Source: an uncultured virus (IMG/VR IMGVR_UViG_2675903599_000007)
Taxonomy: Duplodnaviria; Heunggongvirae; Uroviricota; Caudoviricetes
Length of the DNA stretch: 64,000 bases
Strand: one strand, 5' to 3'
IMG/VR virus record: IMGVR_UViG_2675903599_000007
The translations under genes were made by a program, and so were the position numbers. The notes below the pieces were generated by a model. It searched no databases. It was given only the letters and a program-made list of their open reading frames with translations, and was not told the DNA's origin. Below are positions 25,906 to 45,876 of the stretch, piece after piece (positions within the stretch are counted from its first letter, which is position 1; each line of letters opens with the position of its first letter).

Positions 25906-25920
25906 CTTGATCCTCAACGG

Positions 25921-26356
25921 TTATCCACAAAAGGATGTAGTAATACGTATCGCAGTCAACGGATATACATACCTCAGTAAATACCGTTGCATATCACAGT
26001 ATTAGATTATGCATATAACAGTCAACATTTTACATTCCGCAGTCGATCCAGACAGACGTTAAAGCCAGTTACAGCGCATGCTGGAGCGATCCGGGGATCT
26101 CTTTTGGATCTCACTATGATCTCCTTGGGATCAATTATTGGATCGAGACCTTGAATAACTCAGATACAAGGCCGGAAGCGCCACACCAGGTATCCAGAAC
26201 CCTGGCCTGATTTTCCTGAATACGCTCTGGAAGATTGAGATCTACAGGTACAACAATGAAACATTGACTGCGGTATGCTGAGTCGTCTTTCCTCTTTCTC
26301 GACACAGATACAGTAAGTATCATGCCACAGTCAATATATTACATATCGCAGTCAAT
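25921..26356. repeat. FIB origin: DnaA box, iterons and GATC cluster
   Basis: TTATCCACA 25921; five spaced iterons 25946-26047; dense GATCs 26045-26145; three more iterons 26263-26356. Confidence 0.8.
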
Positions 26357-26647
26357 TTCATTATAACTGGCTGATCCCGAGCCATCTTAAGCAACCCGAC
26401 GTACGTGCAATCTGTGAATTCTGTGATTTTCCGCTTCCTCGCCGCTTTCTCACTCCGTGAGATCGCTTACTGCGGCGAGCGGCAGTGATTAATATTGGCT
26501 GCGGTATGTACTCTTTTGTACTCCCCTGCGGTCTTTGCATCACCCAATGCGGTTCACTTTGCACTTTTTCGTGCACTTTGCGTTTTTATTGTTGCTTTGC
26601 AATAAATTCCAAGATTTAATAAAATAATGCAAAGTGATGATTAAAGG

Positions 26648-27823
26648 ATGTTCAGTATGGGACTCATGGATACACTCAACCAGTGCATAAGTGCTGGTCA
26701 TGAAATGACGAAAGCAATCGCCATTGCGCAGTTTAATGATGACAGTCCGGAAGCCCGGAAAATAACCCGGCGCTGGAGGATTGGTGAAGCAGCTGATTTA
26801 GTTGGCGTGTCATCTCAGGCTATCAGGGATGCCGAGAAAGCTGGCCGGCTGCCTCACCCTGATATGGAAACCCGTGGAAGAGTTGAGCAACGCGTTGGTT
26901 ATACCATCGAGCAAATCAATCACATGCGGGATGTATTTGGTACACGACTGCGCCGTGCTGAAGATGCGTTTCCGCCGGTGATTGGTGTTGCTGCTCACAA
27001 AGGTGGTGTTTACAAAACCTCCGTTTCTGTTCACCTGGCTCAGGACCTGGCCCTGAAAGGATTACGCGTTCTGCTTGTCGAGGGTAATGATCCTCAGGGC
27101 ACAGCCTCGATGTATCACGGATGGGTGCCCGATCTTCATATACACGCGGAAGATACTCTCCTGCCCTTTTATCTTGGTGAAAAGGATGATGCCAGTTATG
27201 CGATAAAACCAACCTGCTGGCCTGGCCTTGATATCATTCCGTCCTGCCTGGCACTGCATCGCATTGAAACTGAACTGATGGGCAAATTTGATGAAGGAAA
27301 ACTGCCCACCGACCCGCATCTGATGCTCCGCCTTGCTATTGAAACGGTCGCTCATGACTATGATGTGATTGTTATCGACAGCGCACCGAACCTCGGTATT
27401 GGCACGATCAATGTCGTATGCGCTGCTGATGTGCTGATTGTTCCCACCCCGGCAGAGCTGTTCGATTACACTTCTGCACTGCAGTTTTTCGATATGCTTC
27501 GTGATCTGCTCAGGAATGTGGATCTTAAAGGCTTTGAGCCGGATGTCCGTATTCTCCTTACCAAATACAGTAATAACAATGGTTCGCAGTCACCGTGGAT
27601 GGAAGAACAAATTCGCGATGCATGGGGAAGCATGGTTCTTAAAAATGTGGTACGTGAAACCGATGAAGTTGGTAAAGGCCAGATCCGCATGAGAACCGTT
27701 TTCGAACAGGCGATTGATCAACGTTCTTCGACCGGCGCATGGCGAAACGCACTTTCAATCTGGGAACCTGTTTGTAATGAGATTTTTGATCGTCTGATTA
27801 AACCACGCTGGGAGATTAGATAA
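26648..27823 (+). CDS. sopA: Partition ATPase SopA
   Basis: Closely matches F SopA ([30 protein letters not shown]). Confidence 0.97.
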
Positions 27824-28794
27824 TGAAGCGTGCCCCTGTCATTCCAAGGCATACCACACATACTCAATCGACTGAAGATACTTCATCACCGGCGCCGGCC
27901 GCGCCGATGGTGGATTCATTAATTGCGCGCGTGGGTGCTATGGCCCGCGGTAATGCTATCTCTCTTCCGGTATGTGGACGGGAAGTAAAATTTACCCTTG
28001 AGGTGCTCCGGGGAGACTCTGTTGAGAGCGCCTCACGCGTATGGTCAGGAAATGAGCGTGATCAGGAACTACTTACCGAAGATGCTCTGGATGATCTCAT
28101 ACCTTCATTTTTACTGACCGGTCAGCAGACTCCAGCTTTCGGCCGCCGGGTTTCTGATGTCATAGAAATTGCAGACGGCAGCCGTCGCCGTAAAGCCGCA
28201 ATCCTGACGGAAAGTGATTATCGCGTTCTGGTTGGTGAACTGGACGATGAGCAGATGGCTGCATTGTCCCGGCTGGGTAACGATTATCGGCCGACGAGTG
28301 CTTATGAACGTGGCCTGCGTTATACAAGCCGGCTGCAGAATGAGTTTGCAGGAAATATTTCTGCGCTTGCCGATGCGGAAAACATTTCTCGTAAGATCAT
28401 TACCCGCTGTATTAATACGGCCAAACTGCCTAAATCCGTTGTTGCCCTGTTTGCACATCCTGGAGAACTGTCTGCCCGGTCAGGTGAAGCCCTTCAGAAG
28501 GCTTTTGCAGATAAAGAAGAATTACTGAAGCAGCAGGCTGAGACTCTCCACGATCAGAAGAAAGCGGGACTAATCTTTGAAGCTGAAGAGGTCATTAGTC
28601 TTTTAACATCCGTACTGAAACAATCTCCCGCATCAAGAGTTAATCTGAGCTCACGTCATCAGTTTGCTCCAGGGGCAACAGCATTGTATAAGGGCGATAA
28701 AATGGTGCTTAACCTGGATAAGTCCCGCATTCCTGCGGAGTGTATAGAGAAAATAGAAGCCATTCTTAAGGAGCTTGAGAAACCAGGAGTCTAA
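27823..28794 (+). CDS. sopB: Centromere-binding protein SopB
   Basis: [31 protein letters not shown]. Confidence 0.97.
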
Positions 28795-28883
28795 TGCGGA
28801 CACGCTTTAGTCTACGGTTATCTCCCTTTACTTCATTTCCTTTCTCACAGGCCAGAAAACATAACTGGCCTGAATATTCTCTC

Positions 28884-29558
28884 TGGGACCACGGTCCCAC
28901 CTGCATCGTCGGTCAGGTTATCTGCCTGGGACCACGGTCTCACCTGCGTCATCGGTCAGGTTATCTGCCTGGGACCACGGTCCCACCTGCGTCGTCGGTC
29001 AGGTTATCTGTCTGGGACCACGGTCCCACCTGCGTCATCTGTCAGGTAATCTGTCTGGGACCACGGTCCCACCTGCGTCATCTGTCAGGTAATCTGTCTG
29101 GGACCACGGTCCCACCTGCGTCATCGGTCAGGTTATCTGACTGGGACCACGGGCCCACCTGCGTCGTCGGTCAGGTTATCTGCCTGGGACCACGGTCCCA
29201 CCTGCGTCATCGGTCAGCTTATCTGTCTGGGACCACGGTCTCACCTGCGTCATCGGTCAGCTTATCTGTCTGGGACCACGGTCCCACCTGCGTCGTCGGT
29301 CAGGTTATCTGTCTGGGACCACGGTCCCACCTGCGTCATCGGTCAGGTAATCTGCCTGGGACCACGGTCCCACCTGTATCGCCGGTCAGGTTATCTCCCT
29401 GGGACCACGGTCCCACCTGCGTCATCGGTCAGGTTATCTGCCTGGGACCATGGTCCCACCTGCGTCGTCGGTCAGCTTATCTGCCTGGGACCACGGTCCC
29501 ACCTGCGTCATCTGTCAGCTTATCTGCCTGGGACCACGGTCCCACCTGCATCGTCGGC
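28884..29558 (+). repeat. sopC: sopC centromere: 16 tandem 43-bp repeats with palindrome TGGGACCACGGTCCCA
   Basis: Palindrome starts every 43 bp from 28884 to 29529. Confidence 0.97.
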
Positions 29559-30150
29559 ACATTATTAGTTAGGGATAACGGTTCAATCAATGCCTGTCAC
29601 GAACAGGTATTGGCTTGTCGCCAGCAACCCGATGAGCGGAGTAATCACGCAGCAGGGCGGCTATTACAGGCGATGGTGAAAGCTCTATTGGGATCTGAAC
29701 GAAGCATGTTGAGTGAAATTTGCAAAATTTCGCAGAGTATGCAGCTTAATCTTTAAGTTTCCGCCGGCATTTTTAAAGCCAGCTACCGACGCTGCGCGTT
29801 GGCCGGCCCTTCGTCCGGCGGGTAACCAGTACCGGCCGATCTTACGACCCTGGATGAACATCATCCCGTCAGCAGCGTCTCCACTGTGATGTCGTTTTTC
29901 ACACTGTGCGATCACAAAATAGAACGGGGAGGGACAACATATGGTAGGAAAAGCAACTGCCAGAGACACAATATATTGATTATCCACAGTAACGGGGGAT
30001 AACCGTGTGGGTAACATATTGAAAGTCCGTCACGTTATCGTATTAATTGACTTTGTAGACACCACTGGACCATAAAAAGAATCCGGGGGAATCATCACAG
30101 CGCATAAACATACCGTTTGTTTTTGGGGGACGGCAAGAGGCCCCTGTTAT

Positions 30151-31472
30151 CCAGTGCGCCGTAAAACCCCGACCTTCAGGGCGGGGATATAAGGCGCGGT
30201 TTTCCGACTAACTTCGGTTAAAATAGCCTCATGAAACGACTTCAAGCCTTCAAATTCCAGTTAAGACCGAATGGTCAGCAGGAGCGCGATATGCGGCGCT
30301 TCGCTGGGGCTTGTCGCTTCGTCTTTAACCGTGCGCTGGCGCTTCAAAACGAAAACCATGAAGCGGGGAACAAATATGTTTCCTACACCAAAATGGCTTC
30401 ATGGCTCATTGAGTGGAAATCACACCCTGATACCCAGTGGCTAAAAGACACGCCATCACTGCCGTTGCAGCAGTCGCTCAAAGATCTGGAGCGCGGCTAC
30501 AAGAATTTCTTCCAGAAGCGTGCAGCATTCCCTCGTTTCAAGAAACGCGGCCAAAACGATGCCCGCAAGGCGTGAAGCTCGATCAGACCAACAATCGTAT
30601 ATCGCTTCCTAAGTTGGGCTGGATACGCTATCGCAATAGCCGTGAAGTCATCGGCGAAGTTAAAAACGTCACGGTCATCCAGTCATGCGGCAAATGGTAC
30701 GTTAGCATCCAGACGGAATACGAAGTGCCTGAACAGGTTCATAAGGCAGCGTCAATGGTCGGTTTGGACGCCGGAGTCACGAAACTTGCCACGCTTTCTG
30801 ATGGCACCGTATACCAGCCAGTCAACAGCTTCAAAGCAAGCCAGCGTAAGCTGGCTATGCTTCAACGGCAGTTAAGCCGCAAAGTTAAATTCAGTGCCAG
30901 TTGGCAGAAACAGAAGAAAAAAATCCAGCGTCTGCACTCACACATTGCCAATATCCGGCGCGACTACCTTCACAAAGTCACCAGTGAAATCAGCAAAAAC
31001 CACGCGATGATCGTCATTGAGGACTTGAAGGTCAGTAACATGTCGAAATCGGCAAAAGGTACGGCAGAGCGGCCCGGACGAAACATCAGAGCCAAATCAG
31101 GCTTAAACCGTTCGATACTGGATCAGGGCTGGTACGAAATGCGCAGACAGCTTGAGTACAAGCAGCTCTGGCGTGGTGGTCAGGTACTGGCGATACCTCC
31201 GGCATACACAAGCCAGCGTTGTGCCTGCTGTGGTCATACGGCGAAAGAAAACCGTCAAACGCAAAGTAAATTCGTGTGTCAGGTATGCGGCTATACCGAG
31301 AACGCCGATATCAACGGAGCACGTAACATTTTAGCGGCAGGACATGCCGTGCTTGCCTGTGGAGGGATGATACAGTCGGGCCGCCCGCTGAAGCAGGAAC
31401 CCACCGAGGCGAGTCAGGCTCCGGTCTGAACGCTGTAGGAATCCTCGCCCTTCAGGGCGGGGAGGATGTCAA
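30151..31472 (+). mobile_element. tnpB-only IS200/IS605-family element (IS1341-type organisation)
   Basis: Subterminal hairpins CCCCGACCTTCAGGGCGGGG and CCTCGCCCTTCAGGGCGGGG; inserted after TTAT, ends TCAA; no tnpA. Confidence 0.88.
30231..31429 (+). pseudogene. tnpB: RNA-guided nuclease TnpB, frameshifted near 30562
   Basis: HTH N-terminus in one frame; RuvC (VGLDAG, IVIEDL, NADINGA) and Zn finger in another; conserved DAFRYPQ segment short by about 10 nt. Confidence 0.88.
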
Positions 31473-31667
31473 CAATTGCACCAGGTCTTTTTCGTCCAGC
31501 GCATCGAGCATTTGTTCATACAGAGCCGCGGGCACACAATAAAAAACAGGGCGGTTGCGGTCAATAATCGCGACCGGGTAGCCGCCGCCGGCACTGGCGG
31601 TGGCCACCGGATCGTTTTTAAGTTCTCAGACGCTGGCAGTCACATCACACAGAATGATGTTTGTCAT
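31473..31667 (-). pseudogene. StbD/Phd-type antitoxin remnant
   Basis: MTNIILCDVTASV*ELKNDP...YPVAIIDRNRPVFYCVPAALYE; GGAGG RBS; in-frame TGA; 3' end cut by the IS. Confidence 0.75.
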
Positions 31668-31745
31668 GGTTCCCTCCTGAGACAAGTCATCTGTATGATC
31701 GGTAAAGTAAGCTCTGGCGGCAAGTCCCGTCTGTCATTTCGACGG

Positions 31746-33017
31746 TCAGAAACGGGCAACCGGCAGCTCCTTCCAGCGGGTGGTATATGCCGGTGACAGC
31801 ATCTCCCGTTTCATCTGCCAGTCCGGCGCAATACCCCGTCCGGCAAACCAGACTTTCCCGAGTCCGGAATGATTAATGCCGTCGAGTACCTTCATCAGCG
31901 CATCGCTGTGCGGCCGTGGCTGCACGTCATCGAACAGATTCAGCTGCGCGACGCCGTTCGGACTGAAATCATTGAGCATTATCCCCGCTTTTGCGTAGCG
32001 GTGGCCATCGAGCCAGATCCTGTCCAGAGACCTGACCGCTGCCGCGATAATGTCCCGGGTGTCACGGGTAGGGGTGTTCAGTTTTTCCGTGGCCACGTTA
32101 CCGTAATACGGCTCATTAACCGCAAAAGGGGATGTCTTGATGAAGGTGCTGATATGCCGGCAGTACTGTCGCTCACCGCGCAACTTTTCCGACGCGCGCT
32201 CGGCATACTGGCAGACGGCCTGGCGCATTTCTTCGTAGGTGGTGATCCGCTGCCCGAAGCTACGACTGCAGACAATCTGCTGTTTCGGCGGCGGCGCTTC
32301 CTCCAGTGAAATGCAACTCTCGCCGTTCAGCTCACGTACCGTGCGCTCCAGCACTACGTTGAAGTTTTTCCGGATAAATGTGGGGTTCGTCAGCGACAGC
32401 TGCAGGGCGGTGGTGATCCCCATAACGTGCAGCTTTTTCGCTATCCGGTTCCCCACGCCCCAGATTTCTTCCACCGGCTGCAGGCTGAGTAATTTTGCCG
32501 TTCTGCGTGGATTTTCGGGCGACAGCGCCAGTACCCCCCTGAATTGTGGCCATTCCTTTGACGCCCACTGCGCCGATTTGGCCAGTGTTTTTGTGGCGCC
32601 GAAGCCGACACCGATCGTCAGTCCGGTTCCACTGAGAACATGCCCACGCAGCTGCCTGCCAAAATCCTCCAGATCCATACAGTGGCCAATTCCCCGGGCA
32701 TCCAGGAAACATTCGTCAATTGAGTATTGTTCGACGCGGGGCGACAGCTCTTCCAGCAGGGCGACCACACGGTTACTCAGGCTCGCGTAGAGCTCGTAGT
32801 TGCTGGAAAAAACGTACAATTTTTCAGGAAACTGCGCCTCTTTGAGCTGGAACCAGGGGGTTCCCATCTTTATACCCAGCAGTTTGGCTTCAGCACTCCG
32901 GGCAATAACGCAGCCATCGTTGTTACTGAGAACGACGACAGGTTTGCCGCGCAAATCCGGCCTGAAAACCTTCTCGCAACTGGCGTAGAAGGAGTTGACG
33001 TCAGCCAGGGCGAACAT
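31746..33017 (-). CDS. umuC: Y-family DNA polymerase V subunit UmuC
   Basis: [31 protein letters not shown] clamp motif, LSPAYTTRW. Confidence 0.96.
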
Positions 33018-33442
33018 CAGTCTGCCCTCCGGGTTTTATGAATGAAGGCTGTCACCACGCCGAAAATTTGCAGCGTTTCCGGATCCGGGTACAGGGAAGG
33101 GAAGTCCGGGTTCATCGCCTGCAGGGCTGGCCGCGGCGTCAGAAGCAGGCGTTTTACCGTAAATTCACCCTCAATTTCCGCGATAACAATATCCCCGTGC
33201 CGCGGCTGTTCTGCTTTATCCACGACCAACAGATCGCCGGAATAGAGGCCAATATCAGTCATTGAGTTGCCAATCGCCCTGACAAAATAGGTGGAGTGGC
33301 GCCGGTGAATGCAGTACTCATTCAGATCCAGTTCAGACTCAGTGTAGTCTGATGCCGGTGACGGAAAACCCGCAGGGCATCGCTCTGTGAACAAAGGAAT
33401 TTTTACTATGCTGGCTTCTGATACTGCAGGAATGAACTTCAT
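33017..33442 (-). CDS. umuD: UmuD (S24 autopeptidase)
   Basis: AGFPSPA cleavage site; GNSM serine and TVKRL lysine. Confidence 0.95.
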
Positions 33443-33463
33443 CGTTTTTTTCCTCGCTTAAAG

Positions 33464-33479
33464 CTGTATATNTATACAG
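33464..33479. promoter_or_regulatory. LexA (SOS) box of umuDC
   Basis: CTGTATATNTATACAG, 21 bp upstream of the umuD ATG. Confidence 0.92.
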
Positions 33480-33480
33480 T

Positions 33481-35390
33481 GTGCGCCGGGAGACCGGTTA
33501 GAGATCAAGGGGTGAAAGTCCCCGACCATTGAAGGACCAGCAATCCACAAGGTCCCCGAGTCATGCGTTGCATACCGCGAGGTATGGGGCGAAGCGTTGA
33601 CAGGGGTGTTGACAGGCCAGCCATTGAGCCACGAAATGTATATTAAATTACCGGGTGCCGACGTTGTACTGTTAACGGAAGGCAACATCATAGGGTGCGA
33701 TACTGCGAGTGCCACATGGACCCGGCGGGGTCTGAGACCCTGGCATGTCAATACGATCTCTACGCGGGAACCGGGAGATCTCCCCTCTGACCATCTGCCA
33801 GTGTCGGAGATGGCCCGCACCGGGAAGACGAGGAGTCATAGCCGGTGATGTACGGAGAGGAGAAGTCGGACTCGCTCATAGTAGCGGCGAAGCAGGCGAA
33901 CAACCCGAAAGGAGCGGAGTCAGTGGAGCGAAGGAGCGGGGCCAAGGGGAACGCGGAACAGCCACACATGCGCCGGACACAGAGCCGGGAAAGCATGTCA
34001 CAGAGGCTGTCACGCGTGCGGGAAGCTGCGAAGCAGCGGAAGAAAGAACGGTTTACAGCATTGTTCCACCTGCTGACAGTCGAAGCACTGGAAGCCGCAT
34101 TCCTCTCCCTGAGCAGGAAAGCGGCCGCCGGAGTGGATGGCATCAGGTGGATGGACTACGCCGGAAACATGAAGAACAACATAACAGATCTGCACCGGAG
34201 GCTACATCAGGGCAGCTACAGGGCGCAGCCCGGCAGGCGTCACTACATCCCAAAAGCGGATGGAAAACAACGCCCGCTCGGCATCGCCTCGCTGGAGGAC
34301 AAGATCGTCCAGTATGCGCTGGTGAAAATCCTGAACGCAGTCTATGAAAACGACTTTATGGGGTTCTCATACGGGTTCAGACCCGGGCGAAGCCAGCACG
34401 ATGCACTGGACGCACTGGCCACAGGGCTGGTACGCACTAACGTAAACTGGGTACTGGATGCCGACATCAGTCAGTTCTTCGACAGGGTGAGCCACGAATG
34501 GCTGATCAGGTTCACAGAGCATCGGATCGGCGACCGGAGGGTAATCAGGCTCATACGTAAGTGGCTCACAGCCGGGACGTCGGAGGAGGGTCAATGGCGA
34601 GCAACGGAGGAAGGCACCCCACAGGGTGCGGTCATCTCACCGCTGCTGGCAAACATATACCTCCACTACGTCTTCGATCTGTGGGCGCATCAGTGGCGAC
34701 GTCGCTATGCCACAGGCAATGTGGTAATGGTCAGATACGCCGATGACATCGTCATCGGGTTCGACAAACGATACGATGCCCGGCGCTTCCGTATAGCCAT
34801 GCAGCGCAGACTGAGGGAGTTCGGACTCACGGTTCACCCGGAGAAAACCCGTCTGATGGAGTTCGGCCGCTTCGCTGCCGAAAACCGTGCCATCAGGGGA
34901 AAAGGCAAACCAGAAACGTTCAACTTCCTCGGGTTCACGCACATCAGCGGGAAAGATCGCAACGGCAGGTTCATGCTGATACGAAANACCCGCCGGGATC
35001 GGATGACGGCAACTCTGAAAGCCATCAAAGACGGTCTGCGAAGGCGCTGGCATTACTCAATCCCCGAACAGGGAAAATGGCTCAGGAGAGTGGTTCAGGG
35101 ATACCTGAACTATCACTCGGTACCGGGCAACTTCCCCACCATGCAGAAGTTCAGGACACACGTAACAAACCTCTGGCGCCGGGCGCTCAGGCGCAGGAGC
35201 CAGAAGGATGATACGACCTGGACGAAAGCAAACAAACTGGCAGCCGCATGGCTACCAAGGGTTCGGGTTCTTCATCCATGGCCTGTGGAGCGGTTCACCG
35301 CCAGACACCCGAGGCAGGAGCCCGGTGCGTAAATCGCGCACGCCGGGATCTGTGCGGGGGGTATCCGGTAACGGGTATCCCTACCGCGAC
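33481..35390 (+). mobile_element. Group II intron, 1910 nt (IIB-like, probably bacterial class E)
   Basis: 5' GTGCG; domain V GAGCCCGGTGCGTAAATCGCGCACGCCGGGATC near 35318; domain VI ending CCTACCGCGAC; internal RT ORF. Confidence 0.93.
33848..35332 (+). CDS. ltrA: Group II intron reverse transcriptase/maturase, no En domain
   Basis: IPKADGKQRPLGI, SYGFRPGR, GTPQGAVISPLLANIYL, RYADD, FNFLGF; maturase GYLNYH. Confidence 0.95.
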   Translation: MYGEEKSDSLIVAAKQANNPKGAESVERRSGAKGNAEQPHMRRTQSRESMSQRLSRVREAAKQRKKERFTALFHLLTVEALEAAFLSLSRKAAAGVDGIRWMDYAGNMKNNITDLHRRLHQGSYRAQPGRRHYIPKADGKQRPLGIASLEDKIVQYALVKILNAVYENDFMGFSYGFRPGRSQHDALDALATGLVRTNVNWVLDADISQFFDRVSHEWLIRFTEHRIGDRRVIRLIRKWLTAGTSEEGQWRATEEGTPQGAVISPLLANIYLHYVFDLWAHQWRRRYATGNVVMVRYADDIVIGFDKRYDARRFRIAMQRRLREFGLTVHPEKTRLMEFGRFAAENRAIRGKGKPETFNFLGFTHISGKDRNGRFMLIRXTRRDRMTATLKAIKDGLRRRWHYSIPEQGKWLRRVVQGYLNYHSVPGNFPTMQKFRTHVTNLWRRALRRRSQKDDTTWTKANKLAAAWLPRVRVLHPWPVERFTARHPRQEPGA

Positions 35391-35430
35391 ATTCAATGTA
35401 TTTTTTACTTAGGAGCATACATGTTCATGA

Positions 35431-36375
35431 TTAATCTGTTTCTTTATCACTTCCAGTTACTTTAACTTTGTCTTTGATTGTATTCAAAAATGACGCAAAG
35501 CTCGGTGGTTGCTCTGTCTGACCTGAAAATGCAGAGTCACCTGAAATATTCCAATCCTTAAAGACTTCTATTGCATCCTCTTTAGTTGCTGTAGAACCGT
35601 ATATCTGCAAAAAAACTTGACCAAACATCAAAGCATGTCGACGATCTTTTCGCCTGATCGATTCATGTGTGTACTTTTTTGAGTTACTAAGGCAGATATA
35701 TGATAGCCATGAAAGAATGGCGATTCCAACTAATCCTCGCGTGAAGATATATATTAACTGAAGGTTAGTGAGATTTTTTAAATCTAAGTTCATGTATAAT
35801 GTAAAAAAAGCAGATATTACCGCAAGGAAGCCAAAAAATACCCCAGCAATAGACCAGATAATAGACATCAATATAAAATGTTTGTCATCACTAGCAAGAT
35901 CTGATTTAACATCGTTAACATAGGTGGGGATTTTTTCATCGATTCTTTGTTGCTGTACTTGGCTACGGAGTTCCTTATTTTCACTAATCAAAGAATTAAC
36001 TTGTTTTACGTTTTTTTCGATTATTGCGTTTTTTCTATTAAGATCCTGAGTATAATGCTCTAACTGTAGAGTTAATATGCTGTTTCGTTCTTCTAATTGT
36101 ATTATATGTTCTACATAATTATTAGGTTCAAGTGATTTTACATTTTTTCTTTTATTAGTTTCATTTTCATTTATATTGGGTTCTTCATCCATCTGTGGCC
36201 TAGTCATGTATTTTTCAATTAGTGCTAGGTTATTATGAGCTTCAGAAAACTCTCCTGCTTCTATTAAGTTTTTTATATGAGAGTAGAAGTGTTTTGCTAT
36301 ATTTTCAGACTGTGAATTAAGCAAGTCTAATAGGTGTTTTTTTATTTCGCTATCTTTATTGGTTGGTTCAGTCAT
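35431..36375 (-). CDS. AT-rich accessory protein, coiled coil plus two TM segments
   Basis: 314 aa, 11 bp downstream of cI; heptad-rich middle then two hydrophobic helices. Confidence 0.8.
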   Translation of the reverse strand: MTEPTNKDSEIKKHLLDLLNSQSENIAKHFYSHIKNLIEAGEFSEAHNNLALIEKYMTRPQMDEEPNINENETNKRKNVKSLEPNNYVEHIIQLEERNSILTLQLEHYTQDLNRKNAIIEKNVKQVNSLISENKELRSQVQQQRIDEKIPTYVNDVKSDLASDDKHFILMSIIWSIAGVFFGFLAVISAFFTLYMNLDLKNLTNLQLIYIFTRGLVGIAILSWLSYICLSNSKKYTHESIRRKDRRHALMFGQVFLQIYGSTATKEDAIEVFKDWNISGDSAFSGQTEQPPSFASFLNTIKDKVKVTGSDKETD

Positions 36376-36386
36376 GATGTTTCTCT

Positions 36387-37322
36387 TTATACATTTTTAG
36401 TAAAAACTCTTTTACATTTTGCCAAAACGATAATGTCAGTAAGTAAGCATTCAAAACTTGCGTTAGTGCCTACAACTTTAACCATACCAACGGGTATGCG
36501 AGTCAAATCTTTGATGCTTATTTTCCCTTCAATATTCACAAGCCACTTGCCATCAGTAACTTCATTAAATTTTGATTCTACAATATATATTTCCTCATCA
36601 ATGAATACTGCTAAAGGTTGCAGAAAGGTTCCTTCTAACAACTTAGAGTCAAAAGTCAAAACGGTTTCTTGAGCAAGAGATCCATCAATTATTTTATGAT
36701 ATGGGATAGTGATAGTATTGATTCGAGGCTTTTCAAACATTGCCCCGTTACCAGTGGTTAGCCATGTTAATGAAGCACCAGTTTCCAGTGAGCATTGAAT
36801 AATCCAGTCAGCAGGAAAGGTATCTCTCATGTAACGATTGGCTAATGTACTTTTTGATACACCAATATGATCAGCTAAAGCTTGTCTTGTCTTAAATCCA
36901 TAAGCCAAAACGATTCGCTCTATTGCTGCTTTTCCGCCTTGGTTAATAGTAAAAAAGTTCTCATTTTGGATGTCTTGTTCTCTATTGAGATGTTGATGCT
37001 TGCTGTCACAATTGTTGTGACTTTTTTCTGCATTATTTGTAATTCTTCCCTTCTCTGTATCAGTGCCAAATGCCAACCACTCGACCGGCACTCCAGTCTC
37101 CATGCTACAGATAACGACCCAATCAGCAGGGAAAGTGTCACGGGCATACCTGTTCGCCATTGTACTTTGCGATATACCTAGGTGATTACAGAATGCTTGT
37201 CGGGAAGAAAAACCATAGGCTTTCAGTATCCGAGCTATAACCGATTGCCCTCCGCGATTCTGCATGATTAAGGATTTCTTTTTTTCGTCCACATGGCGAA
37301 ATGTGATTTCGTGTGTTGACAT
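36387..37322 (-). CDS. cI: Phage 186-type CI repressor with two tandem HTH domains
   Basis: AYGF..RQA...H.G.S.ST.ANRY.RDTFPADW...CS.ETG occurs twice; C-terminal DGKWLVNIEG...RIP. Confidence 0.88.
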   Translation of the reverse strand: MSTHEITFRHVDEKKKSLIMQNRGGQSVIARILKAYGFSSRQAFCNHLGISQSTMANRYARDTFPADWVVICSMETGVPVEWLAFGTDTEKGRITNNAEKSHNNCDSKHQHLNREQDIQNENFFTINQGGKAAIERIVLAYGFKTRQALADHIGVSKSTLANRYMRDTFPADWIIQCSLETGASLTWLTTGNGAMFEKPRINTITIPYHKIIDGSLAQETVLTFDSKLLEGTFLQPLAVFIDEEIYIVESKFNEVTDGKWLVNIEGKISIKDLTRIPVGMVKVVGTNASFECLLTDIIVLAKCKRVFTKNV

Positions 37323-37410
37323 AACCGATTTGTGATCCTATTCTCCGAAATGTGAAGTTGAAGCCACGATTAAAACTGACTCACCACAAGCCAATAGGAG
37401 ATGTTGCATC

Positions 37411-37632
37411 ATGACCCCTAACATTTCAATAACCCTGAATACGCCACATGTCACAATTGAGCGTTATAGCGAACTTACTGGTCTTTCAATCGACACAATT
37501 AACGATATGCTGGCTGACGGTCGCATCCCTCGGCATCGCCTTCGGAAAGACAAGAAAAGAGAAAAGGTGATGATCAACCTTGCTGCTCTTACCGTTGATG
37601 CACTTACTGATTGCAATGTTGTATTCAACTAG
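37411..37632 (+). CDS. Apl/Cox-like regulator/excisionase
   Basis: [30 protein letters not shown], divergent from cI. Confidence 0.8.
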
Positions 37633-37664
37633 TTCCATTTTGGGATGCATCAGGGGTGTCGACC

Positions 37665-38174
37665 ATGTTTGATTACCAAGTTTCCAAACATCCACATTTT
37701 GATGAAGCCTGTCGTGCATTCGCATTGCGCCACAACCTGGTGCAACTGGCAGAACGTGCTGGCATGAATGTGCAGATTCTGCGGAACAAGCTGAACCCAG
37801 CTCAACCTCATTTATTAACCGCACCAGAAATCTGGCTGCTTACCGATCTGACTGAAGATTCAACGCTGGTAGATGGTTTTCTGGCACAGATTCATTGTCT
37901 GCCATGTGTACCGATTAATGAGGTGGCAAAAGAGAAACTGCCACATTACGTCATGAGTGCAACCGCAGAGATCGGGCGTGTTGCAGCAGGTGCGGTATCT
38001 GGCGATGTAAAAACCAGTGCAGGTCGTCGTGATGCTATCAGCAGCATTAACTCTGTAACACGACTGATGGCGCTGGCCGCTGTTTCATTGCAGGCCCGTT
38101 TACAGGCTAATCCTGCGATGGCGAGTGCAGTTGATACCGTGACTGGCCTCGGTGCTTCATTCGGTTTGCTGTGA
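37665..38174 (+). CDS. cII: Phage regulatory CII
   Basis: [20 protein letters not shown]...LRNKLNP. Confidence 0.87.
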
Positions 38175-38181
38175 GGTGCTT

Positions 38182-38382
38182 ATGCTGACGAAAGAACCAT
38201 CATTTGCATCGCTGCTGGTAAAACAAAGTCCGGCAATGCACTACGGGCACGGCTGGATCATGGGTGAGGATGGTAAACGCTGGCATCCGTGCCGTTCACA
38301 AGATGAATTGCTGGCAGAACTATCTACGAAAAAACAGGGGAACAAATGGCTATTGAAGGCGCTGCGGCGACTGTTCCATTAA
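38182..38382 (+). CDS. Phage early protein (Fil/DUF2724-like)
   Basis: PSFASLL...YGHGWI...GKRWHP. Confidence 0.75.
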   Translation: MLTKEPSFASLLVKQSPAMHYGHGWIMGEDGKRWHPCRSQDELLAELSTKKQGNKWLLKALRRLFH

Positions 38383-38687
38383 GCCCCGGTGAACGCCTGA
38401 ACGGACTTAATCACATTGCGGAATTAAGGGCGAAAGTATTTGGCCTGAATATTGAGTCAGAGCTTGAGCGGTTTATTAAAGATATGCGTGATCCACGGGA
38501 TATCAATAATGAACAAAATAAACGGGCACTGGCTGCCATATTCTTTATGGCAAAAATCCCAGCTGAACGTCATAGCATCAGCATTAATGAGCTGACCACT
38601 GACGAAAAGCGGGAGCTGATTAAAGCAATGAATCATTTTCGTGCAGTGGTGAGCTTATTTCCCAGACGGCTAACCATGCCGAATTAA
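38346..38687 (+). CDS. Phage early protein (DUF5347-like)
   Basis: GLNHIAELRAKVF...LAAIFFMAKIP; conserved position. Confidence 0.7.
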   Translation: MAIEGAAATVPLSPGERLNGLNHIAELRAKVFGLNIESELERFIKDMRDPRDINNEQNKRALAAIFFMAKIPAERHSISINELTTDEKRELIKAMNHFRAVVSLFPRRLTMPN

Positions 38688-38754
38688 CCAACTAATGAAA
38701 TTCATGGCGTAAACCCGCCGGGCATCCCTTTATCTAAATTCAGGAGAATTGATT

Positions 38755-38988
38755 ATGCGTAGTATTGAAACCCTCACGACTAAAACCGGACCGGATGATG
38801 CAGGGCTTAATATTTTACTGACAGAGGCTCGTCTGGAAGACCGCCGGGCAAGGGCTGAAGCAATGGCAGCTCGCCTTGATAGCCTGGCGTGTCATATCAC
38901 ATCCCGCCAGCTAAACCACGTCGAAGCGGCAGAACTGCTGCGTGTGACTGCTGAAGCAATCCAGAACGAAGCGCAGGAGATCCACTGA
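38755..38988 (+). CDS. Phage protein (DUF2732-like)
   Basis: LLTEARLE.RRARA...EAAELLR; AGGAG RBS. Confidence 0.75.
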   Translation: MRSIETLTTKTGPDDAGLNILLTEARLEDRRARAEAMAARLDSLACHITSRQLNHVEAAELLRVTAEAIQNEAQEIH

Positions 38989-39215
38989 TGGCTGATGCAA
39001 TGGATCTCGTACAGCAGCGCGTTGAAGAAGAACGCCAGCGTCATATCCGTACTGCCCGCGCCAAAACGCCGGGCGTATCCCGCGTGCTTTGCATTGAGTG
39101 TGAAGCACCAATTCCGCCAGCACGACGTCGCGCCATTCCGGGTGTGCAGCTTTGCATTACCTGTCAGGAAATCGCAGAGCTGAAAGGCAAACATTACAAC
39201 GGAGGTGCTGTATGA
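38988..39215 (+). CDS. TraR/DksA C4 zinc-finger protein
   Basis: MADAMD...CIEC..PIP.ARR.AIPGVQLCITCQ. Confidence 0.88.
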   Translation: MADAMDLVQQRVEEERQRHIRTARAKTPGVSRVLCIECEAPIPPARRRAIPGVQLCITCQEIAELKGKHYNGGAV

Positions 39216-40069
39216 GCACCATCCTGAAATGGGCGGGTAATAAAACCGCCATTATGCCAGAACTGAAAAAATACCTTCCTGCTGGCCCGCGACTGGTTGA
39301 ACCTTTCGCGGGTTCTTGTGCTGTGATGATAGAGACGGATTACCCCAGCTATCTTGTTGCGGATATTAATCCTGATTTAATCAACCTCTATAAAAAGGTT
39401 GCTGCTGATTGCGAGGCGTTTATATCTCGTGCCAGAGCTTTATTTGAGGAAGCAAACAGGGAGGTGGCTTATTACAACATAAGGCAGGAGTTTAATTACT
39501 CCACTGAAATTACTGATTTCATGAAAGCGGTATATTTCCTGTATCTCAATCGTCATGGTTACCGTGGGTTATGTCGCTATAACAAGAGCGGGCATTTCAA
39601 CATTCCCTATGGGAATTATAAAAATCCGTATTTCCCTGAAAAAGAAATTCGCAAATTTGCAGAAAAAGCCCAGCGAGCAACGTTTATCTGCGCCAGCTTT
39701 GATGAAACGCTGGCGATGTTGAAGGCGGGGGATGTGGTGTATTGCGATCCGCCTTATTACGGTACGTTTTCCGGCTATCACACTGATGGCTTCACTAAGG
39801 ATGACCAGTATCACCTGGCATCCGTTCTTGAACATCGATCATCTGAAGGTCATCCGGTCATTGTTTCTAACAGTGACACATCCCTGATTCGTTCGCTGTA
39901 TCGCAATTTCACTCACCACTACATCAAGGCAAAACGCAGCATCGGCGTGTCGGCTGGCGAGAGTAAATCTGCAACAGAAATCATTGCTGTTTCCGGGGCG
40001 CGCTGCTGGGTGGGATTTGCTCCTTCGCGTGGCGTAGATAGTTCTGCTGTGTACGAGGTGCGTGTATGA
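39212..40069 (+). CDS. dam: Phage DNA adenine methylase (Dam family)
   Basis: LKWAGNK, VEPFAGS, YCDPPY. Confidence 0.92.
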
Positions 40070-42480
40070 GTCATGACGATATGAGCAACTCTAGCGGCTT
40101 TAACGAGGCCGCTGCATCATTTTCATGGAACGGCCCGAAAAAGGCCATTAATCCTTATCTGGACCCGGCGGAAGTTGCGCCGGAGTCTGCACTTTCAAAC
40201 CTGATCACTCTGTATGCTGCCGATAACGAGCAGGAACAACTGCGCCGCGAGGCACTGAGTGAGCAGGTCTGGGAGCGTTATTTCTTTAATGAATCCCGTG
40301 ATCCTGTCCAGCGCGAAATGGAGCAGGATAAGCTCATTAGCCGGGTAAAGCTGGCGCATGAGCAGCAGCGTTTTAATCCAGACATGGTCATTCTGGCTGA
40401 CGTCAACGCCCAGCCTTCCCATATCAGCAAGCCGCTGATGCAACGTATTGAATACTTCAGCAGCCTGGGCAGGCCAAAGGCTTATTCCCGCTATTTGCGT
40501 GAGACGATTAAGCCATGTCTGGAACGACTGGAGCATGTACGCGACAGTCAGCTATCCACTTCTTTTCGCTTTATGGCAAGCCATGAAGGGCTGGACGGCC
40601 TGCTGATCCTGCCTGAAATGAGTCAGGATCAGGTGAAACGCCTGTCTACCCTTGTCGCTGCGCATATGAGCATGTGTCTTGATGCCGCTTGTGGTGATTT
40701 GTACGCCACCGATGATGTTAAGCCAGAAGAAATCCGCAAGACATGGGAAAAGGTGGCAGCGGAAACCCTACGTTTGGATGTCATCCCGCCTGCGTTTGAG
40801 CAACTCCGTCGGAAAAGAAACCGCCGTTAACCAGTGCCCTATGAACTCATTCCGGGCTCGCTGGCGCGTATGCTGTGCGCCGACTGGTGGTATCGGAAAT
40901 TGTGGAAGATGCGTTGTGAATGGCGGGAAGAGCAGTTGCGTGCTGTCTGCCTGGTCAGCAAAAAAGCATCTCCCTATGTCAGCTATGAAGCTGTGATGCA
41001 TAAACGTGAGCAGCGCCGTAAGTCGCTGGAGTTTTTCCGTTCTCATGAACTGGTGAACGAAGACGGCGACACGCTGGACATGGAAGATGTGGTAAACGCC
41101 AGCTGCAGCAACCCGGCGCATCGCCGCAATGAGATGATGGCCTGTGTTAAAGGTCTGGAGCTTATCGCGGAAATGCGCGGTGACTGCGCCGTTTTCTACA
41201 CCATTACCTGTCCGTCACGTTTCCATTCCACGCTCAATAACGGCAGACCCAATCCGACCTGGAAAAACGCGACGGTAAGACAAAGCAGCGATTATCTGGT
41301 CGATATGTTTGCTGCATTTCGTAAGGCGATGCACAAAGCCGGGTTGCGCTGGTATGGCGTGCGGGTGGCTGAGCCGCATCACGACGGCACAGTTCACTGG
41401 CACCTGTTGTGTTTCATGCGCAAAAAAGACCGCCGCGCCATTACTGCATTGTTGCGTAAGTTTGCTATCCGTGAAGACCGCGAGGAGCTGGGCAATAACA
41501 CGGGGCCGCGCTTTAAGTCTGAGCTGATTAACCCGCGCAAAGGAACGCCGACAAGCTACATAGCGAAATACATCAGTAAGAACATTGACGGGCGTGGTCT
41601 GGCTGGCGAGATCAGCAAGGAAACGGGTAAATCTCTTCGTGATAACGCTGAATACGTGAATGCCTGGGCGTCTTTGCATCGTGTTCAGCAATTCCGCTTC
41701 TTTGGTATTCCGGGGCGTCAGGCTTACCGTGAACTGCGATTGCTGGCTGGTCAGGCGGCAAGGCAGCAGGGTGACAAAAAAGCAGGTGTGCCGGTACTGG
41801 ATAACCCGCGCCTTGATGCCATTCTGGCTGCTGCTGATGCTGGTTGTTTTGCCACCTATATCATGAAGCAGGGAGGTGTACTGGTTCCCCGTAAATATCA
41901 CCTCATCAGAACTGCTTATGAAATTAACGAAGAGCCGACCGCCTATGGCGATCACGGTATTCGTATTTATGGCATCTGGTCACCCATTGCAGAGGGCAAG
42001 ATCTGCACTCATGCAGTGAAGTGGAAAATGGTTCGTAAGGCCGTTGACGTTCAGGAGGCGGCAGCCGACCAGGGCGCTTGCGCCCCTTGGACTCGTGGCA
42101 ATAACTGTCCCCTTGCTGAAAATTTGAACCAACAAGGGAAAGACAAATCAGCTGATGGGGATACCAGGACGGACATTACCCGCATGGATGACAAGGAGTT
42201 GCACGATTACCTGCACAGTATGAGCAAAAAAGAGCGCCGGGAACTGGCTGCAAGGTTACGCCTGGTGAAACCGAAACGGCGTAAAGACTACAAACAGCGA
42301 ATTACAGACCATCAGCGACAGCAGCTCGTCTATGAACTGAAGTCCAGAGGATTTGATGGCAGCGAGAAAGAGGTCGATTTACTCCTTCGCGGCGGCAGTA
42401 TTCCATCAGGAGCAGGCCTGCGTATCTTCTATCGGAACCAGCGTTTGCAGGAAGATGATAAGTGGCGAAACCTGTATTAA
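40066..42480 (+). pseudogene. A: P2-type replication endonuclease gpA with in-frame TAA at 40828-40830
   Basis: Two in-frame ORFs separated by one stop (RNRR*PVPYEL); [27 protein letters not shown] motifs. Confidence 0.9.
42080..42110 (+). other. P2-type rolling-circle origin inside gene A
   Basis: GCGCCCCTTGGACTCGTGGCAATAACTGT resembles P2 ori GCGCCTCGGAGTCCTGTCAATAACTGT. Confidence 0.65.
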
Positions 42481-42574
42481 TTACGCGGGTTAACAATTCG
42501 TGCTCTTAATAATACCAGGCATATCAGGCTGATGAACGTAAAAAAACGTTTTACATCAGTAATATTATTATATA

Positions 42575-42605
42575 CTGTAAATATAAACAGTGGCTATACA
42601 TACAG
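42575..42605 (+). promoter_or_regulatory. Overlapping LexA boxes of the tum-dinI operon
   Basis: CTGTAAATATAAACAG 42575-42590 and GTGGCTATACATACAG 42590-42605. Confidence 0.85.
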
Positions 42606-42633
42606 TGTTGCTTGTGGTGTCATAGGAGGAAAG

Positions 42634-42822
42634 ATGCAGGACTATTTTTTGGAGTCTTTGAAGCTCCAGCGCATTGATTTTTTTCTTAAGCTTGTAGCGG
42701 CTAGTGAGTGTAGTGATGAAGAGAAGGGGCTGGCTTTGCAGTGGGTTTCTGAACTGACAGATGAACTCATGGCAAAAATCAGAACCCACGAATACAACCG
42801 CTCAATGGATGTCATCAGCTGA
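42634..42822 (+). CDS. SOS-inducible antirepressor (Tum-like)
   Basis: LQRIDF..KLVAA...EKGLALQWVSEL; AGGAGG RBS; follows LexA boxes. Confidence 0.7.
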   Translation: MQDYFLESLKLQRIDFFLKLVAASECSDEEKGLALQWVSELTDELMAKIRTHEYNRSMDVIS

Positions 42823-42832
42823 GGTGACTTTT

Positions 42833-43066
42833 ATGCGCATTGAAATAATGATCGATAAAGAGCAGAAGATTAGCCAGTCTACCCTGGACGCCCTTGAATC
42901 CGAGCTTTACCGCAATCTGCGCCCCCTGTATCCCAAAACGGTAATCCGTATCCGTAAAGGTAGCTCTAACGGTGTGGAACTGACCGGACTGCAACTGGAC
43001 GAAGAAAGAAAACAAGTGATGAAAATTATGCAGAAGGTGTGGGAAGACGACAGCTGGCTGCATTGA
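42833..43066 (+). CDS. DinI-family protein
   Basis: MRIEIMIDK...ALESEL...IMQKVWEDDSWLH. Confidence 0.85.
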   Translation: MRIEIMIDKEQKISQSTLDALESELYRNLRPLYPKTVIRIRKGSSNGVELTGLQLDEERKQVMKIMQKVWEDDSWLH

Positions 43067-43180
43067 TTTTGTCAATAGACGCTTGTTTTTTCTAATCAAA
43101 AAGGGTTACATATGAGTGAGAGGCGATGATCAATCAGATATCGCCTTGTTTTTTGTCAAGAAAAGAATAATAGGCTAAAA

Positions 43181-43858: not shown

Positions 43859-44031
43859 GTTTCACGCTTACTGAGTATGTTACGATTTTGCACATTCTGC
43901 ATAAACGCGCATGTCTATGCTGCATGAGATCGCATGATCGTTTGAGGATCTTTTGTGTTAAGGCCCGCCAGTTCTAGCGGGCTTTTGCGTAGATCATGCA
44001 GGTGCATGAAAACCACTACATAAAGTGGGCA

Positions 44032-44050
44032 GGCGTGGCGGGGATACGAG
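44032..44050 (+). other. cos site (19-nt cohesive end)
   Basis: GGCGTGGCGGGGATACGAG resembles phage 186 GGCGTGGCGGGGAAAGCAT; lies between A and Q. Confidence 0.8.
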
Positions 44051-44133
44051 CGCGCGCTGGAGGGATAAATGGAATTGAAAATGTACCTTCTTAGAGATAA
44101 CCTTCGCTAAAACTTTATTACTAAGGAGTGATA

Positions 44134-45876
44134 ATGAGTACCTGGAACCAAGCCTATTCTGCAAGAGAAGATTTGAAATCGTATGGTGATAATGGACTGG
44201 CTTTGTTTGCGTTAGCATTACATTTCAGAATTGATGATATTGATAGTGTCGCAGCAGAGTCCATTACCGATGGACATGACGATAAGAAATGTGACCTTGT
44301 GTATATTAATGAAGAAGAAGAATTTGCTGTACTTGCTCAATGCTATTTCTCAAGCAAAGATAGACAGGAAGCTCCAGCAAATAAAGCGAGTGATCTTAAT
44401 ATTGCTTTAGCATGGCTTCTGCAAAGAGATTTGCATGATGTACCCGATAGAATAAAATCTTCTGCTCAACAGATACGGACATCAATCAAACAAGGGAAAA
44501 TTAAAACTCTGTACGTTTGGTATGTTCATAACTTACCATCTTCAACAAATGTGGCTCAAGAGCTAATTACGGTTCAGCAGACAGCAGCAACTATTTTAAA
44601 ACATGATTTTGAAGATGCTAAAATACAAGTGCATGCAATGGAAGTAGGCACTGAAAAGTTGACGGAATGGTATAGTGAATCACTATCACCAATACTGGTT
44701 GATGAGATTTTCAATATTAAAGTCAGTGATGGTGGCTATGAAATAAAAGGAGATAATTGGAATGCATTCTGTACTACCATTCAGGGAAGAGATTTAGCTA
44801 GAGCGTACAAAAAGCATAAATTAAAAATATTTTCAGCAAATGTTAGAGACTACCTTGGATCAAGGTCATCTGATTCAAATATCAATAATGGTATCCGTAA
44901 CAGTGCGGAAAATTCAGCATCAGAATTTTGGGCATACAATAATGGCGTAACTGTTTTGGTTCATGAATATAAATTCAATGAAGCATCAAAGAATCTTGAA
45001 ATCAGAGGGATGTCAATAGTTAATGGAGCACAGACAACAGGTGCTTTAGGAACGCTGCCACGATTACCTCCAGAATCAGTTAAAGTCCAAGCTAGATTTA
45101 TAAAAGTCAAAGATGCGGATGCTGATCTAATTCAGAATATAATTCAGTATAATAACAGTCAGAATAAAGTTGAAGCATCTGATTTCAGAAGCACAGACAA
45201 AATTCAAAAACGACTTAAAAATGAATTTGCTTCTATTCCTGATGCTGAATATGATGGAGGAAGACGAGGAGGTGCTGAAAGTGTCATTCGTCGAAAAACT
45301 AATCTACTGCCTTCTTATACTGTTGGTCAAGCTTTGATGAGTTTCCATGGAGAGCCGACGATAGCTTATAATCAGCGATCTGCAATTTGGACTAATGACT
45401 CTCATTATTCTAAGATTTTTAATGACAGTACAAAAGCTTCACATATTGTTTGTGCGTATTCTCTCATGCGGTGTATTGAGAACAAGAAAATAGCTTTGGC
45501 AAAGAAAGATACTCTTTCAAAAAATGATAGCGCTCAATTGGGATATCTCAGGCATCGTGGTTCAATACCTTTATTGTGCTCGGCTATTGCCGAATGTTTG
45601 GAAAACTTTTTGGGCCGTCCCGTTCCTAATTTATTTAGAGTTTCGTTTGGAAGTACGGTCTCTCCTTCTCAGGCTGAAAGTATTTGGGAGCCAATTGTAG
45701 ATGTGTGTCTGGCTTTAAGTAATCAGTTGCTGCCTGCACTGGTTGAAGGAGGGTTGAAAAGTCCTACAAAAGTTAAAGATTGTATATCAAATTTTTCACA
45801 GCTTATTACTGCAACGGCCCAAATGAACCAGCCTGTATATGAGGCATTTGAGAAAAAAATCAAATCCGCATTCTAA
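44134..45876 (+). CDS. AIPR-family (abortive infection phage resistance) protein
   Basis: ANVRDYLG, FWAYNNGVT, SIVNGAQT, NNSQN motifs; N-terminal DGHDDKKCD...Q nuclease-like motif; AAGGAG RBS. Confidence 0.88.
   Translation: MSTWNQAYSAREDLKSYGDNGLALFALALHFRIDDIDSVAAESITDGHDDKKCDLVYINEEEEFAVLAQCYFSSKDRQEAPANKASDLNIALAWLLQRDLHDVPDRIKSSAQQIRTSIKQGKIKTLYVWYVHNLPSSTNVAQELITVQQTAATILKHDFEDAKIQVHAMEVGTEKLTEWYSESLSPILVDEIFNIKVSDGGYEIKGDNWNAFCTTIQGRDLARAYKKHKLKIFSANVRDYLGSRSSDSNINNGIRNSAENSASEFWAYNNGVTVLVHEYKFNEASKNLEIRGMSIVNGAQTTGALGTLPRLPPESVKVQARFIKVKDADADLIQNIIQYNNSQNKVEASDFRSTDKIQKRLKNEFASIPDAEYDGGRRGGAESVIRRKTNLLPSYTVGQALMSFHGEPTIAYNQRSAIWTNDSHYSKIFNDSTKASHIVCAYSLMRCIENKKIALAKKDTLSKNDSAQLGYLRHRGSIPLLCSAIAECLENFLGRPVPNLFRVSFGSTVSPSQAESIWEPIVDVCLALSNQLLPALVEGGLKSPTKVKDCISNFSQLITATAQMNQPVYEAFEKKIKSAF

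Follow-up and report, generated by a model that had tools for sequence, protein, structure and literature searches.

The window analysed in this work is a stretch of 64,000 nt from an uncultured virus (IMG/VR record IMGVR_UViG_2675903599_000007). It contains a full-length group II intron, Kl.pn.I5 or Se.ma.I1, inserted in the predicted LexA (SOS) operator of a umuD-like gene, which is followed by a umuC-like gene (Table 1). The intron 5′ end, GTGCG at 33481, lies directly after CTGTATATNTATACAGT (33464-33480), and the 3′ end reads ...CCCTACCGCGAC. Both ends were placed by reading the sequence, correspond to the GUGYG and AY intron boundaries, and are identical in all full copies examined. An earlier note, made from the letters of the window alone, had put the intron directly after the umuD SOS box plus one base, and this is the arrangement found, with CTGTATATNTATACAG at 33464-33479 and the additional T at 33480.

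The palindrome CTGT-N8-ACAG at 33464-33479 is located 21 nt upstream of the umuD-like start. The intron splits the 20-bp LexA box between positions 19 and 20, and position 20 (A) is now at 35391. The 16-bp operator core and three more operator positions are kept at the 5′ junction; only position 20 is altered, from A to G. LexA binding to this box is predicted from the consensus and from known members of the regulon. The window has 4 matches to CTGT-N8-ACAG where 0.81 would be expected, and 0 of 100 shuffles reach 4. Two positions of the window sequence, 33472 and 34988, are N.

Table 1. Coordinates of the intron, its parts, its target and the adjoining genes in the window (EBS, exon-binding site; IBS, intron-binding site; ORF, open reading frame).
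Feature	Position	Strand	Remarks
umuC-like Y-family polymerase gene	31746..33017	-	IMS, IMS_C, DUF4113
umuD-like gene (S24 peptidase)	33017..33442	-	its operator is the target; intron antisense; same junction labelled umuD in RefSeq
LexA-box core CTG-N10-CAG plus T, 5′ exon end	33464..33480	+	IBS2 33468-33474, IBS1 33475-33480
Full-length group II intron Kl.pn.I5 / Se.ma.I1	33481..35390	+	1910 nt; 5′ GTGCG, 3′ ...CGAC (35387-35390)
EBS2, UGUAUAU	33637..33643	+	canonical internal loop; pairs with ATATAYA at -13..-7, G-T wobble at -8
EBS1, ACUGUU	33668..33673	+	terminal loop of hairpin 33657-33683; pairs with WACAGT at -6..-1
Candidate EBS3, U in GGUCUGAGACC	33733	+	pairing with +1 A; suggestive
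Intron-encoded protein, reverse transcriptase/maturase	33845..35332	+	495 aa, RVT_1, YADD, one X from the N at 34988
Domain V hairpin	35318..35350	+	by eye: GAGCCCGGUGCG UAAAU CGCGC AC GCCGGGAUC
Domain VI	35351..35390	+	bulged branch-point A, 35383, 8 nt before the 3′ splice site
3′ exon (ATTCAATG...)	35391..35430	+	from a different site, LexA box of a P2-like prophage
314-aa ORF	35431..36375	-	no Pfam family; between the intron and the CI repressor gene
225-aa ORF	43181-43858		no Pfam match; adjoins the AIPR gene
AIPR-family (abortive-infection type) gene	44128..45876	+	in the P2-like prophage

The Rfam model RF02005 (group II D1-D4-6) covers positions 33515-33740 with 186.6 bits (E 2.5e-55, gathering score 49). 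The full model (1-225) is matched, and the fold of domains I-IV is present. The intron shows 99.9% identity across 1910 nt to the copy in CP023932.1, which carries the name Se.ma.I1 / Kl.pn.I5 (PMC6764390), and it has the same length as the Kl.pn.I5 entry of the Zimmerly group II intron database, which is the same element. In the consulted part of the supplement of Leclercq & Cordaux 2012, Kl.pn.I5 copies are also of 1910 nt (e.g., NC_009649 119263-121172), with the entry 'E1' in a column that we interpret as class (PMC3522654). The segment 33481-35390 is an intact copy of this catalogued mobile class-E intron, and the element itself is not new.

The intron is abundant in plasmids. It matches 4313 of 72,556 plasmid records, 3552 of them at 99% identity or more and 675 at 90-95%, and 3778 of the matching records are from Klebsiella. 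Among 5426 complete Escherichia coli genomes, 219 present 275 intron places (45 chromosomal and 230 plasmid), and 9 of the 401 family genomes used as species representatives had any intron match.

The alignment to RF02005 places ACUGUU in a terminal loop and AAAUGUAUAUUAAAUUA in the unpaired 5′ strand of the preceding internal loop, where the earlier note had predicted EBS1 and EBS2. In the DNA, ACTGTT is inside the loop GTACTGTT of the hairpin GCCGACGTT...AACGGAAGGC (33657-33683). The minimum free energy and centroid folds of 33618-33742 agree with the alignment on these loops and leave both EBS segments unpaired; the fold of this region is no more stable than shuffles (z -0.76). Together, EBS1 and EBS2 complement positions 7-19 of the 20-bp LexA consensus (ATATAYA + WACAGT), and the A at 33636 could pair with the T at -6. 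The window site has 12/13 determinable EBS-IBS pairs, one target base being N.

Three relatives of the intron, as sampled, covary with their targets at the predicted EBS loops. In L030, whose protein is 58% identical, EBS1 is UAAGCG and the exon ends in CGCTTA. The more distant L025 has EBS1 UAAGCG and EBS2 UCGGU, facing CGTTTA (one G-T) and ACCGG at -12..-8. L287, 73% identical and inserted in a LexA box, has EBS1 ACUGUA and EBS2 UGGAUAC with the exon segments TACAGT and ATATCCA, and the U to G change of its EBS2 is matched by an A to C change of the target at -9. The candidate EBS3 is U in the window, L022 and L287, where +1 is A, and G in L030 and L025, where +1 is C. A delta-delta′ contact between the U just 5′ of EBS1 and the +1 A was considered and rejected, since relatives with the same U have C at +1.

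Insertion sites of other copies were collected from several sources. A scan of genome contigs for exact matches to the first 30 nt of the intron gave 9 loci, all with 5′ flanks ending in ...CAGT, and the 8 with at least 20 nt of flank have the full CTG-N10-CAG box. Scans with the first 18 nt gave at least 116 metagenome loci and 102 viral loci, which were pooled with the genome-contig and E. coli loci. Close copies were defined by at least 75% crude identity over the first 120 nt plus at least 25 nt of flank, with five tandem intron-intron junctions excluded. Among the matches listed, to which the counts of sites below also refer, there were at least 176 close copies, and 55 other introns that merely share the 18-mer served as controls. 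The flanks of the close copies were then clustered (greedy procedure) by the 20 nt that lie outside the box, which resulted in 65 contexts, reduced to 64 by removal of L104, which is another intron.

The earlier note had made the 5′ flanks of other copies and the folded structure the tests of its proposal, and both turned out in its favour. CTG-N10-CAG was found at -17..-2 in 58 of the 64 flank contexts and in 0 of the 55 controls; the chance of this pattern is about 1/4096 per site, and the 64 contexts include 44 distinct 19-mers. Chance falls far short of explaining the association of the intron with the LexA box. The base composition of the sites (n=64) is T53, A56, C59, T61, G62 and T54 for -19 to -14; A50, T60, A58, T60, A45, T33/A19/C12 and A60 for -13 to -7; and T37/A25, A61, C64, A64, G64 and T63 for -6 to -1. 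This logo fits the register of the earlier note, with IBS2 at -13..-7 and IBS1 at -6..-1. The sites form 9-13 of the 13 possible EBS1 + EBS2 pairs, with at least 11 in 53 of 64, and +1 is A in 13 of 13 distinct 3′ exons.

The copies occur on chromosomes, plasmids and prophages, as had been anticipated. Twelve annotated E. coli regions with the intron were examined for site and orientation: six records have it in sense at chromosomal umuD, two in antisense at tisB, one in sense at sbmC, one in antisense at a prophage S24-peptidase gene, one at a box after hipA, and one at the 3′ end of a plasmid gltS, where the box is not full (TTG-N10-CAG). Insertion on either strand, expected earlier from the palindromic target, is plausible, with sense copies at umuD and sbmC and antisense copies at tisB and plasmid umuD. 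The opposite strand has nearly as many pairs, with a mean of 10.64 of 13 against 11.38 for the occupied strand. Of the two, the occupied strand is the better paired in 34 sites and the poorer in 12, and 18 sites are tied (Wilcoxon p 3e-4). Loose ends of contigs from RNA runs revealed further copies at other boxes.

Some observations made in this census concern particular loci. The nine genome-contig loci (L001-L009) are short contigs in assemblies of culture-collection actinobacteria, Bacteroidota and others, with the enterobacterial intron and LexA-box flanks, and are probably contamination of those assemblies. The gltS copy (L021, plasmid of E. coli ATCC BAA-196) is ectopic, at TTG-N10-CAGT/A (slash, insertion point) with poor IBS2 pairing, in a record with 4 places matching the intron. 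Head-to-tail tandem introns, 1909 nt apart and with the 3′ end of one abutting the next 5′ end, were found in IMGVR_UViG_2880021599_000003 (four copies, L175-L178) and IMGVR_UViG_2588253736_000002 (two, L215-L216); they may be real multimers or assembly artefacts. L077 has two adjacent LexA-like boxes (CCTGTATATAAAAACAGTACTGTAAATTTATACAGT), with a diverged relative of the intron after the second one. A different intron (L045, L057, L062, L085, L127 and L142) has the same 18-nt 5′ end and, in its first 120 nt, a crude identity of about 65-69%; it is always preceded by ...(A/T)TCA, and is a relative with another conserved target. In the window itself, two further CTGT-N8-ACAG boxes, 42575-42590 and 23396-23411, are empty; the 5′ context of the first is that of occupied sites in viral contigs L210, L220 and L246, and its next base is G, not A.

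Then, we propose that the natural homing site of Kl.pn.I5 is very probably the LexA (SOS) operator, chosen through the guide loops EBS1 and EBS2. Dozens of different LexA boxes carry the intron between their positions 19 and 20 (CAGT/A), and the earlier proposal that it homes to a transcription-factor operator rather than to a gene is well supported by the sequence data. The RNA-protein particle would base-pair with one DNA strand of the box and reverse-splice after the T, with U33733 in the coordination loop probably reading the +1 A. The intron would then be copied into DNA from a primer supplied by the replication fork, as in RmInt1 and the IIC introns, because the intron protein is without an endonuclease domain. 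As the earlier note put forward, such an intron might also benefit from the single-stranded DNA present during SOS.

The consequences of an insertion would depend on its orientation. In the sense insertions at umuD and sbmC, both the intron and the gene still lie downstream of the promoter and operator, which would leave the intron in the 5′ untranslated region behind an intact LexA-controlled promoter; from this layout, it would be transcribed on SOS induction and then spliced out. For the plasmid umuDC box, an empty homologue is given by the G001 plasmid contig, which reads ...CTGTATATATATACAGT before and ATTATTTTGCGG after the insertion point and matches the 3′ exon of the 92% relative L022. 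In umuD sense this homologue has TTGAAA-16 nt-AATAAT-A-CTG..., with the box directly after the predicted -10 element. Because of this promoter layout, an antisense intron would stand between the -10 and the operator and separate the operon from its promoter. A promoter scan found one antisense promoter-like site inside the intron (GTGGCA-17-TATGAT, 33715 to 33687, minus strand), directed toward the LexA box and umuDC, and such sites are not above shuffles (1 found, 1.1 expected).

Several points weigh against this interpretation. Six of the 64 contexts are not canonical boxes: L049 (3 members) has no left arm and is a clean ectopic site; L021, L093 and L119 keep two of the three CTG bases, as does L100, which reads CAG...TCAGT; and in L068 the spacing is N9. 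Many of the prophage contexts are apparently homologous, and 64 is therefore an overestimate of the independent events. The stretch is present as contigs in 24 RNA runs; in the 4 of these runs that were examined no spliced junction was found, and contigs cannot show expression. Splicing and mobility are deduced from intactness and copy number, the near-identical copies in 64 contexts implying mobility. The domain V-VI model RF00029 gave no match to this copy at E≤1. Examined by eye, its domain V has the AGC triad, the AC bulge and two helices, with a UAAAU loop that is not GNRA; it aligns with the L030 domain V, for which RF00029 gives 41.6 bits, and the domain VI stem has compensatory changes relative to L030 (UAUCCG/CGGGUA vs UGGCAG/CUGCCA). 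A single covariation event suggests the EBS3 assignment. By the positions on the E. coli K-12 map, the insertions at umuD (sense), sbmC (sense) and tisB (antisense) would all put the intron on the lagging-strand template. Finally, most sites conserve the left arm TACTGT (-19..-14), which no EBS covers, and pairing may therefore be only a part of the recognition. The earlier note had the EBSs reading the operator, which holds for -13..-1; reading of the whole operator by pairing alone is not borne out.

One explanation for the left arm would refine the proposal and is compatible with it. The right two-thirds of the box would be read by EBS1 and EBS2, and TACTGT at -19..-14 additionally by the intron protein. 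Group II intron proteins such as LtrA and those of EcI5 and RmInt1 read the distal 5′ exon. The bases of this arm are strongly conserved (C-17 in 59, T-16 in 61 and G-15 in 62 of 64), and a search for an RNA segment that could pair with it found only the 4-nt ACAG, at chance level. As background we used five genomes of the nearest genus, with the reversed pattern as control. The strict right part, TATNNAWACAGTA or TATNNAWACAGT(A), for which occupied sites were scored without the +1 A, has 48 genomic matches against 30 for the reversed control. CTG is present in 39/43 occupied sites and in 23/30 sampled unoccupied genomic matches of this strict part, which is not a difference (Fisher p 0.18). 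For the relaxed right part, WWWNNAWACAGT, it is present in 46/51 occupied sites vs 85/535 genomic matches (odds ratio 49, p 9e-28), and in 7 of the 8 occupied sites of the relaxed-but-not-strict class. If one mismatch is tolerated, there are 1849 matches to the strict right part lacking the final A (2222 for the control), and 146 to the version that includes CTG (43 for the control). These counts suggest that well-paired genomic sites are mostly LexA boxes anyway, and that even the occupied sites with poorer pairing are LexA boxes. This would result either from reading of the left arm by the protein or from the loss of insertions elsewhere, mostly within genes; purifying selection against intragenic insertions would give an equal enrichment. 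In addition, good IBS matches in the five genomes are mostly LexA boxes regardless of a protein contact, and the clean ectopic site L049, in its three members, is without the left arm. We consider this protein contact possible, at somewhat less than an even chance.

The loss of other insertions could also be taken as the entire explanation, with insertion at any WACAGT/A with an AT-rich 5′ side and persistence only in intergenic SOS promoters. Random sites abound, mostly in genes, since the one-mismatch right part is no commoner than its reversed control, and ectopic copies exist (gltS, L049). However, the 9-13 of 13 pairs at the occupied sites are far above random, the same boxes are hit repeatedly in unrelated replicons, the better-pairing strand is preferred, and L287 has an EBS2 tuned to its own box variant. 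Survivorship alone is thus an unlikely account of the distribution.

Recognition of structure, as in class C (IIC), is still less probable. Under it, the palindrome would be read as a DNA hairpin or cruciform and not by pairing, and the palindromic target, the intron protein without endonuclease, as in IIC, and single-stranded DNA that could fold at forks are in agreement with it. On the other hand, IBS1 is the 3′ arm of the palindrome and therefore cannot be hairpin-bound and paired to EBS1 simultaneously; EBS2 is present and covarying, whereas IIC introns are without EBS2; and mismatched arms are uncompensated in occupied boxes (CTGG...ACAG, CTGT...CCAG, CTGT...TCAG). With EBS2 present and IBS1 inside the palindrome, the intron is not a member of class C, and the structure reading is disfavoured. 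Help from LexA itself, which when bound to the DNA would recruit the particle or open the site for it, is the least probable of all, as co-location and nothing else speaks for it, pairing accounts for position and register, and bound LexA would more likely occlude the site.

The intron-encoded protein has an open frame of 495 aa with the motif VRYADDIV, and RVT_1 is its sole Pfam match (4.6e-47; cut-off E≤0.001). Its best solved relatives are group II reverse transcriptases: GsI-IIC RT (9.4e-43), 6me0 (6e-42) and LtrA (7.9e-36). No endonuclease domain was found in the protein by Pfam at the same cut-off, and it ends about 130 aa past the reverse transcriptase domain. The stop codon of the intron ORF falls within the domain V loop.

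The two flanks of the intron in this window have different origins, and the intron stands exactly at their join. To the left (24895-33442) are plasmid genes, encoding a Rep3 initiator, ParA/SopB, an IS605-type TnpB and UmuDC; to the right (35431-46966) are genes of a P2-like prophage, encoding CI, CII, a Dam methylase, gpA, AIPR and a portal protein. The 5′ junction, on the umuD side, is covered at 80% or more in 1246 of 4608 matching plasmid records, and the 3′ junction in only 2 of 4162. The window 3′ flank is present in 3 records; in CP125156.1 it follows an intron copy with another 5′ box, AACTGTATATAAAAACAGT, in a P2-like prophage. The phage collection gave no match to this flank. Mixed flanks also occur elsewhere, as in L005, where the umuD 5′ exon is combined with the L003 3′ exon. 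Because two different occupied sites contribute its 5′ and 3′ exons, the window copy represents either recombination between intron copies or an assembly error across the 1.9-kb repeat, and not a fresh insertion. In CP125156.1 (locus L288), the interval from ltrA to CI, equivalent to 35431-36375, has no annotated feature.

The known targets of group II introns are single genes, insertion sequences, terminators and attC sites. Ll.LtrB and EcI5 read about 13-14 nt of the target by EBS2, EBS1 and delta/EBS3, and the distal 5′ exon by the protein. The window intron is like them in the length that is read by pairing; their proteins have an endonuclease domain and their sites are in single genes, whereas the paired segment of the window intron is a transcription-factor consensus. 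RmInt1 (Sinorhizobium meliloti, class D; PMC5010178, PMC1802570) is closer, with the IIB-type EBS1/EBS2/EBS3 pairing and a reverse transcriptase/maturase naturally without the endonuclease domain; it has one site, in the insertion sequence ISRm2011-2, whereas the window intron has a regulator operator, present many times per genome and on many replicons. The retrohoming of RmInt1 is presumed to be primed at replication forks. The IIC and IIC-attC introns, located after terminators and in integron attC sites, resemble the window intron in the use of a recurrent, functionally defined palindromic non-coding motif without endonuclease. According to the consulted part of PMC3522654, IIC introns have no EBS2 and recognise a hairpin that precedes a short IBS1. 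The window intron differs from them by the presence of EBS2, the IBS1 inside the palindrome and the match to the D1-D4 model RF02005.

From 3 copies, Leclercq & Cordaux 2012 described a conserved homing site of Kl.pn.I5, with the IBS and extra conserved bases at -25..+10, and 0 free sites in one genome by perfect-match search (PMC3522654, consulted part). In this work, by comparison, the occupied boxes number in the dozens, and unoccupied boxes are listed as well. In the main text of that article, as far as consulted, LexA, SOS, operator and palindrom- have 0 occurrences, and the site is not named a LexA box. Full-text literature searches, which did not cover subscription journals, found, among the papers listed, none linking a group II intron to LexA or the SOS box, and the consulted parts of PMC8233155 and PMC6805351 hold nothing relevant to such a link. 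The earlier note knew of no description of such homing: the LexA-box target was not found in print, and the intron was already catalogued. What emerges is a known element with an apparently new target class, well supported by sequence data.

A natural intron with RNA guides matching a transcription-factor operator represents a new target niche. At even chances, we propose that the guide loops of a lineage of class-E introns have become adapted to a global regulator's operator. Such introns would gain a landing pad on every enterobacterial chromosome, many plasmids and many prophages, and SOS-inducible expression when inserted in sense. They would rewire or silence SOS genes (plasmid umuDC, tisB/istR, prophage S24 genes), and their copies would act as portable homology through which plasmids, chromosomes and prophages become fused in clinical strains of Klebsiella and E. 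coli. This suggests a route for the spread of a retroelement across replicons, with its own expression tied to DNA damage, including that caused by antibiotics. The intron is very common, and its presence in the promoters of genes for mutagenesis, toxins and prophages may change the SOS outputs of clinical strains.

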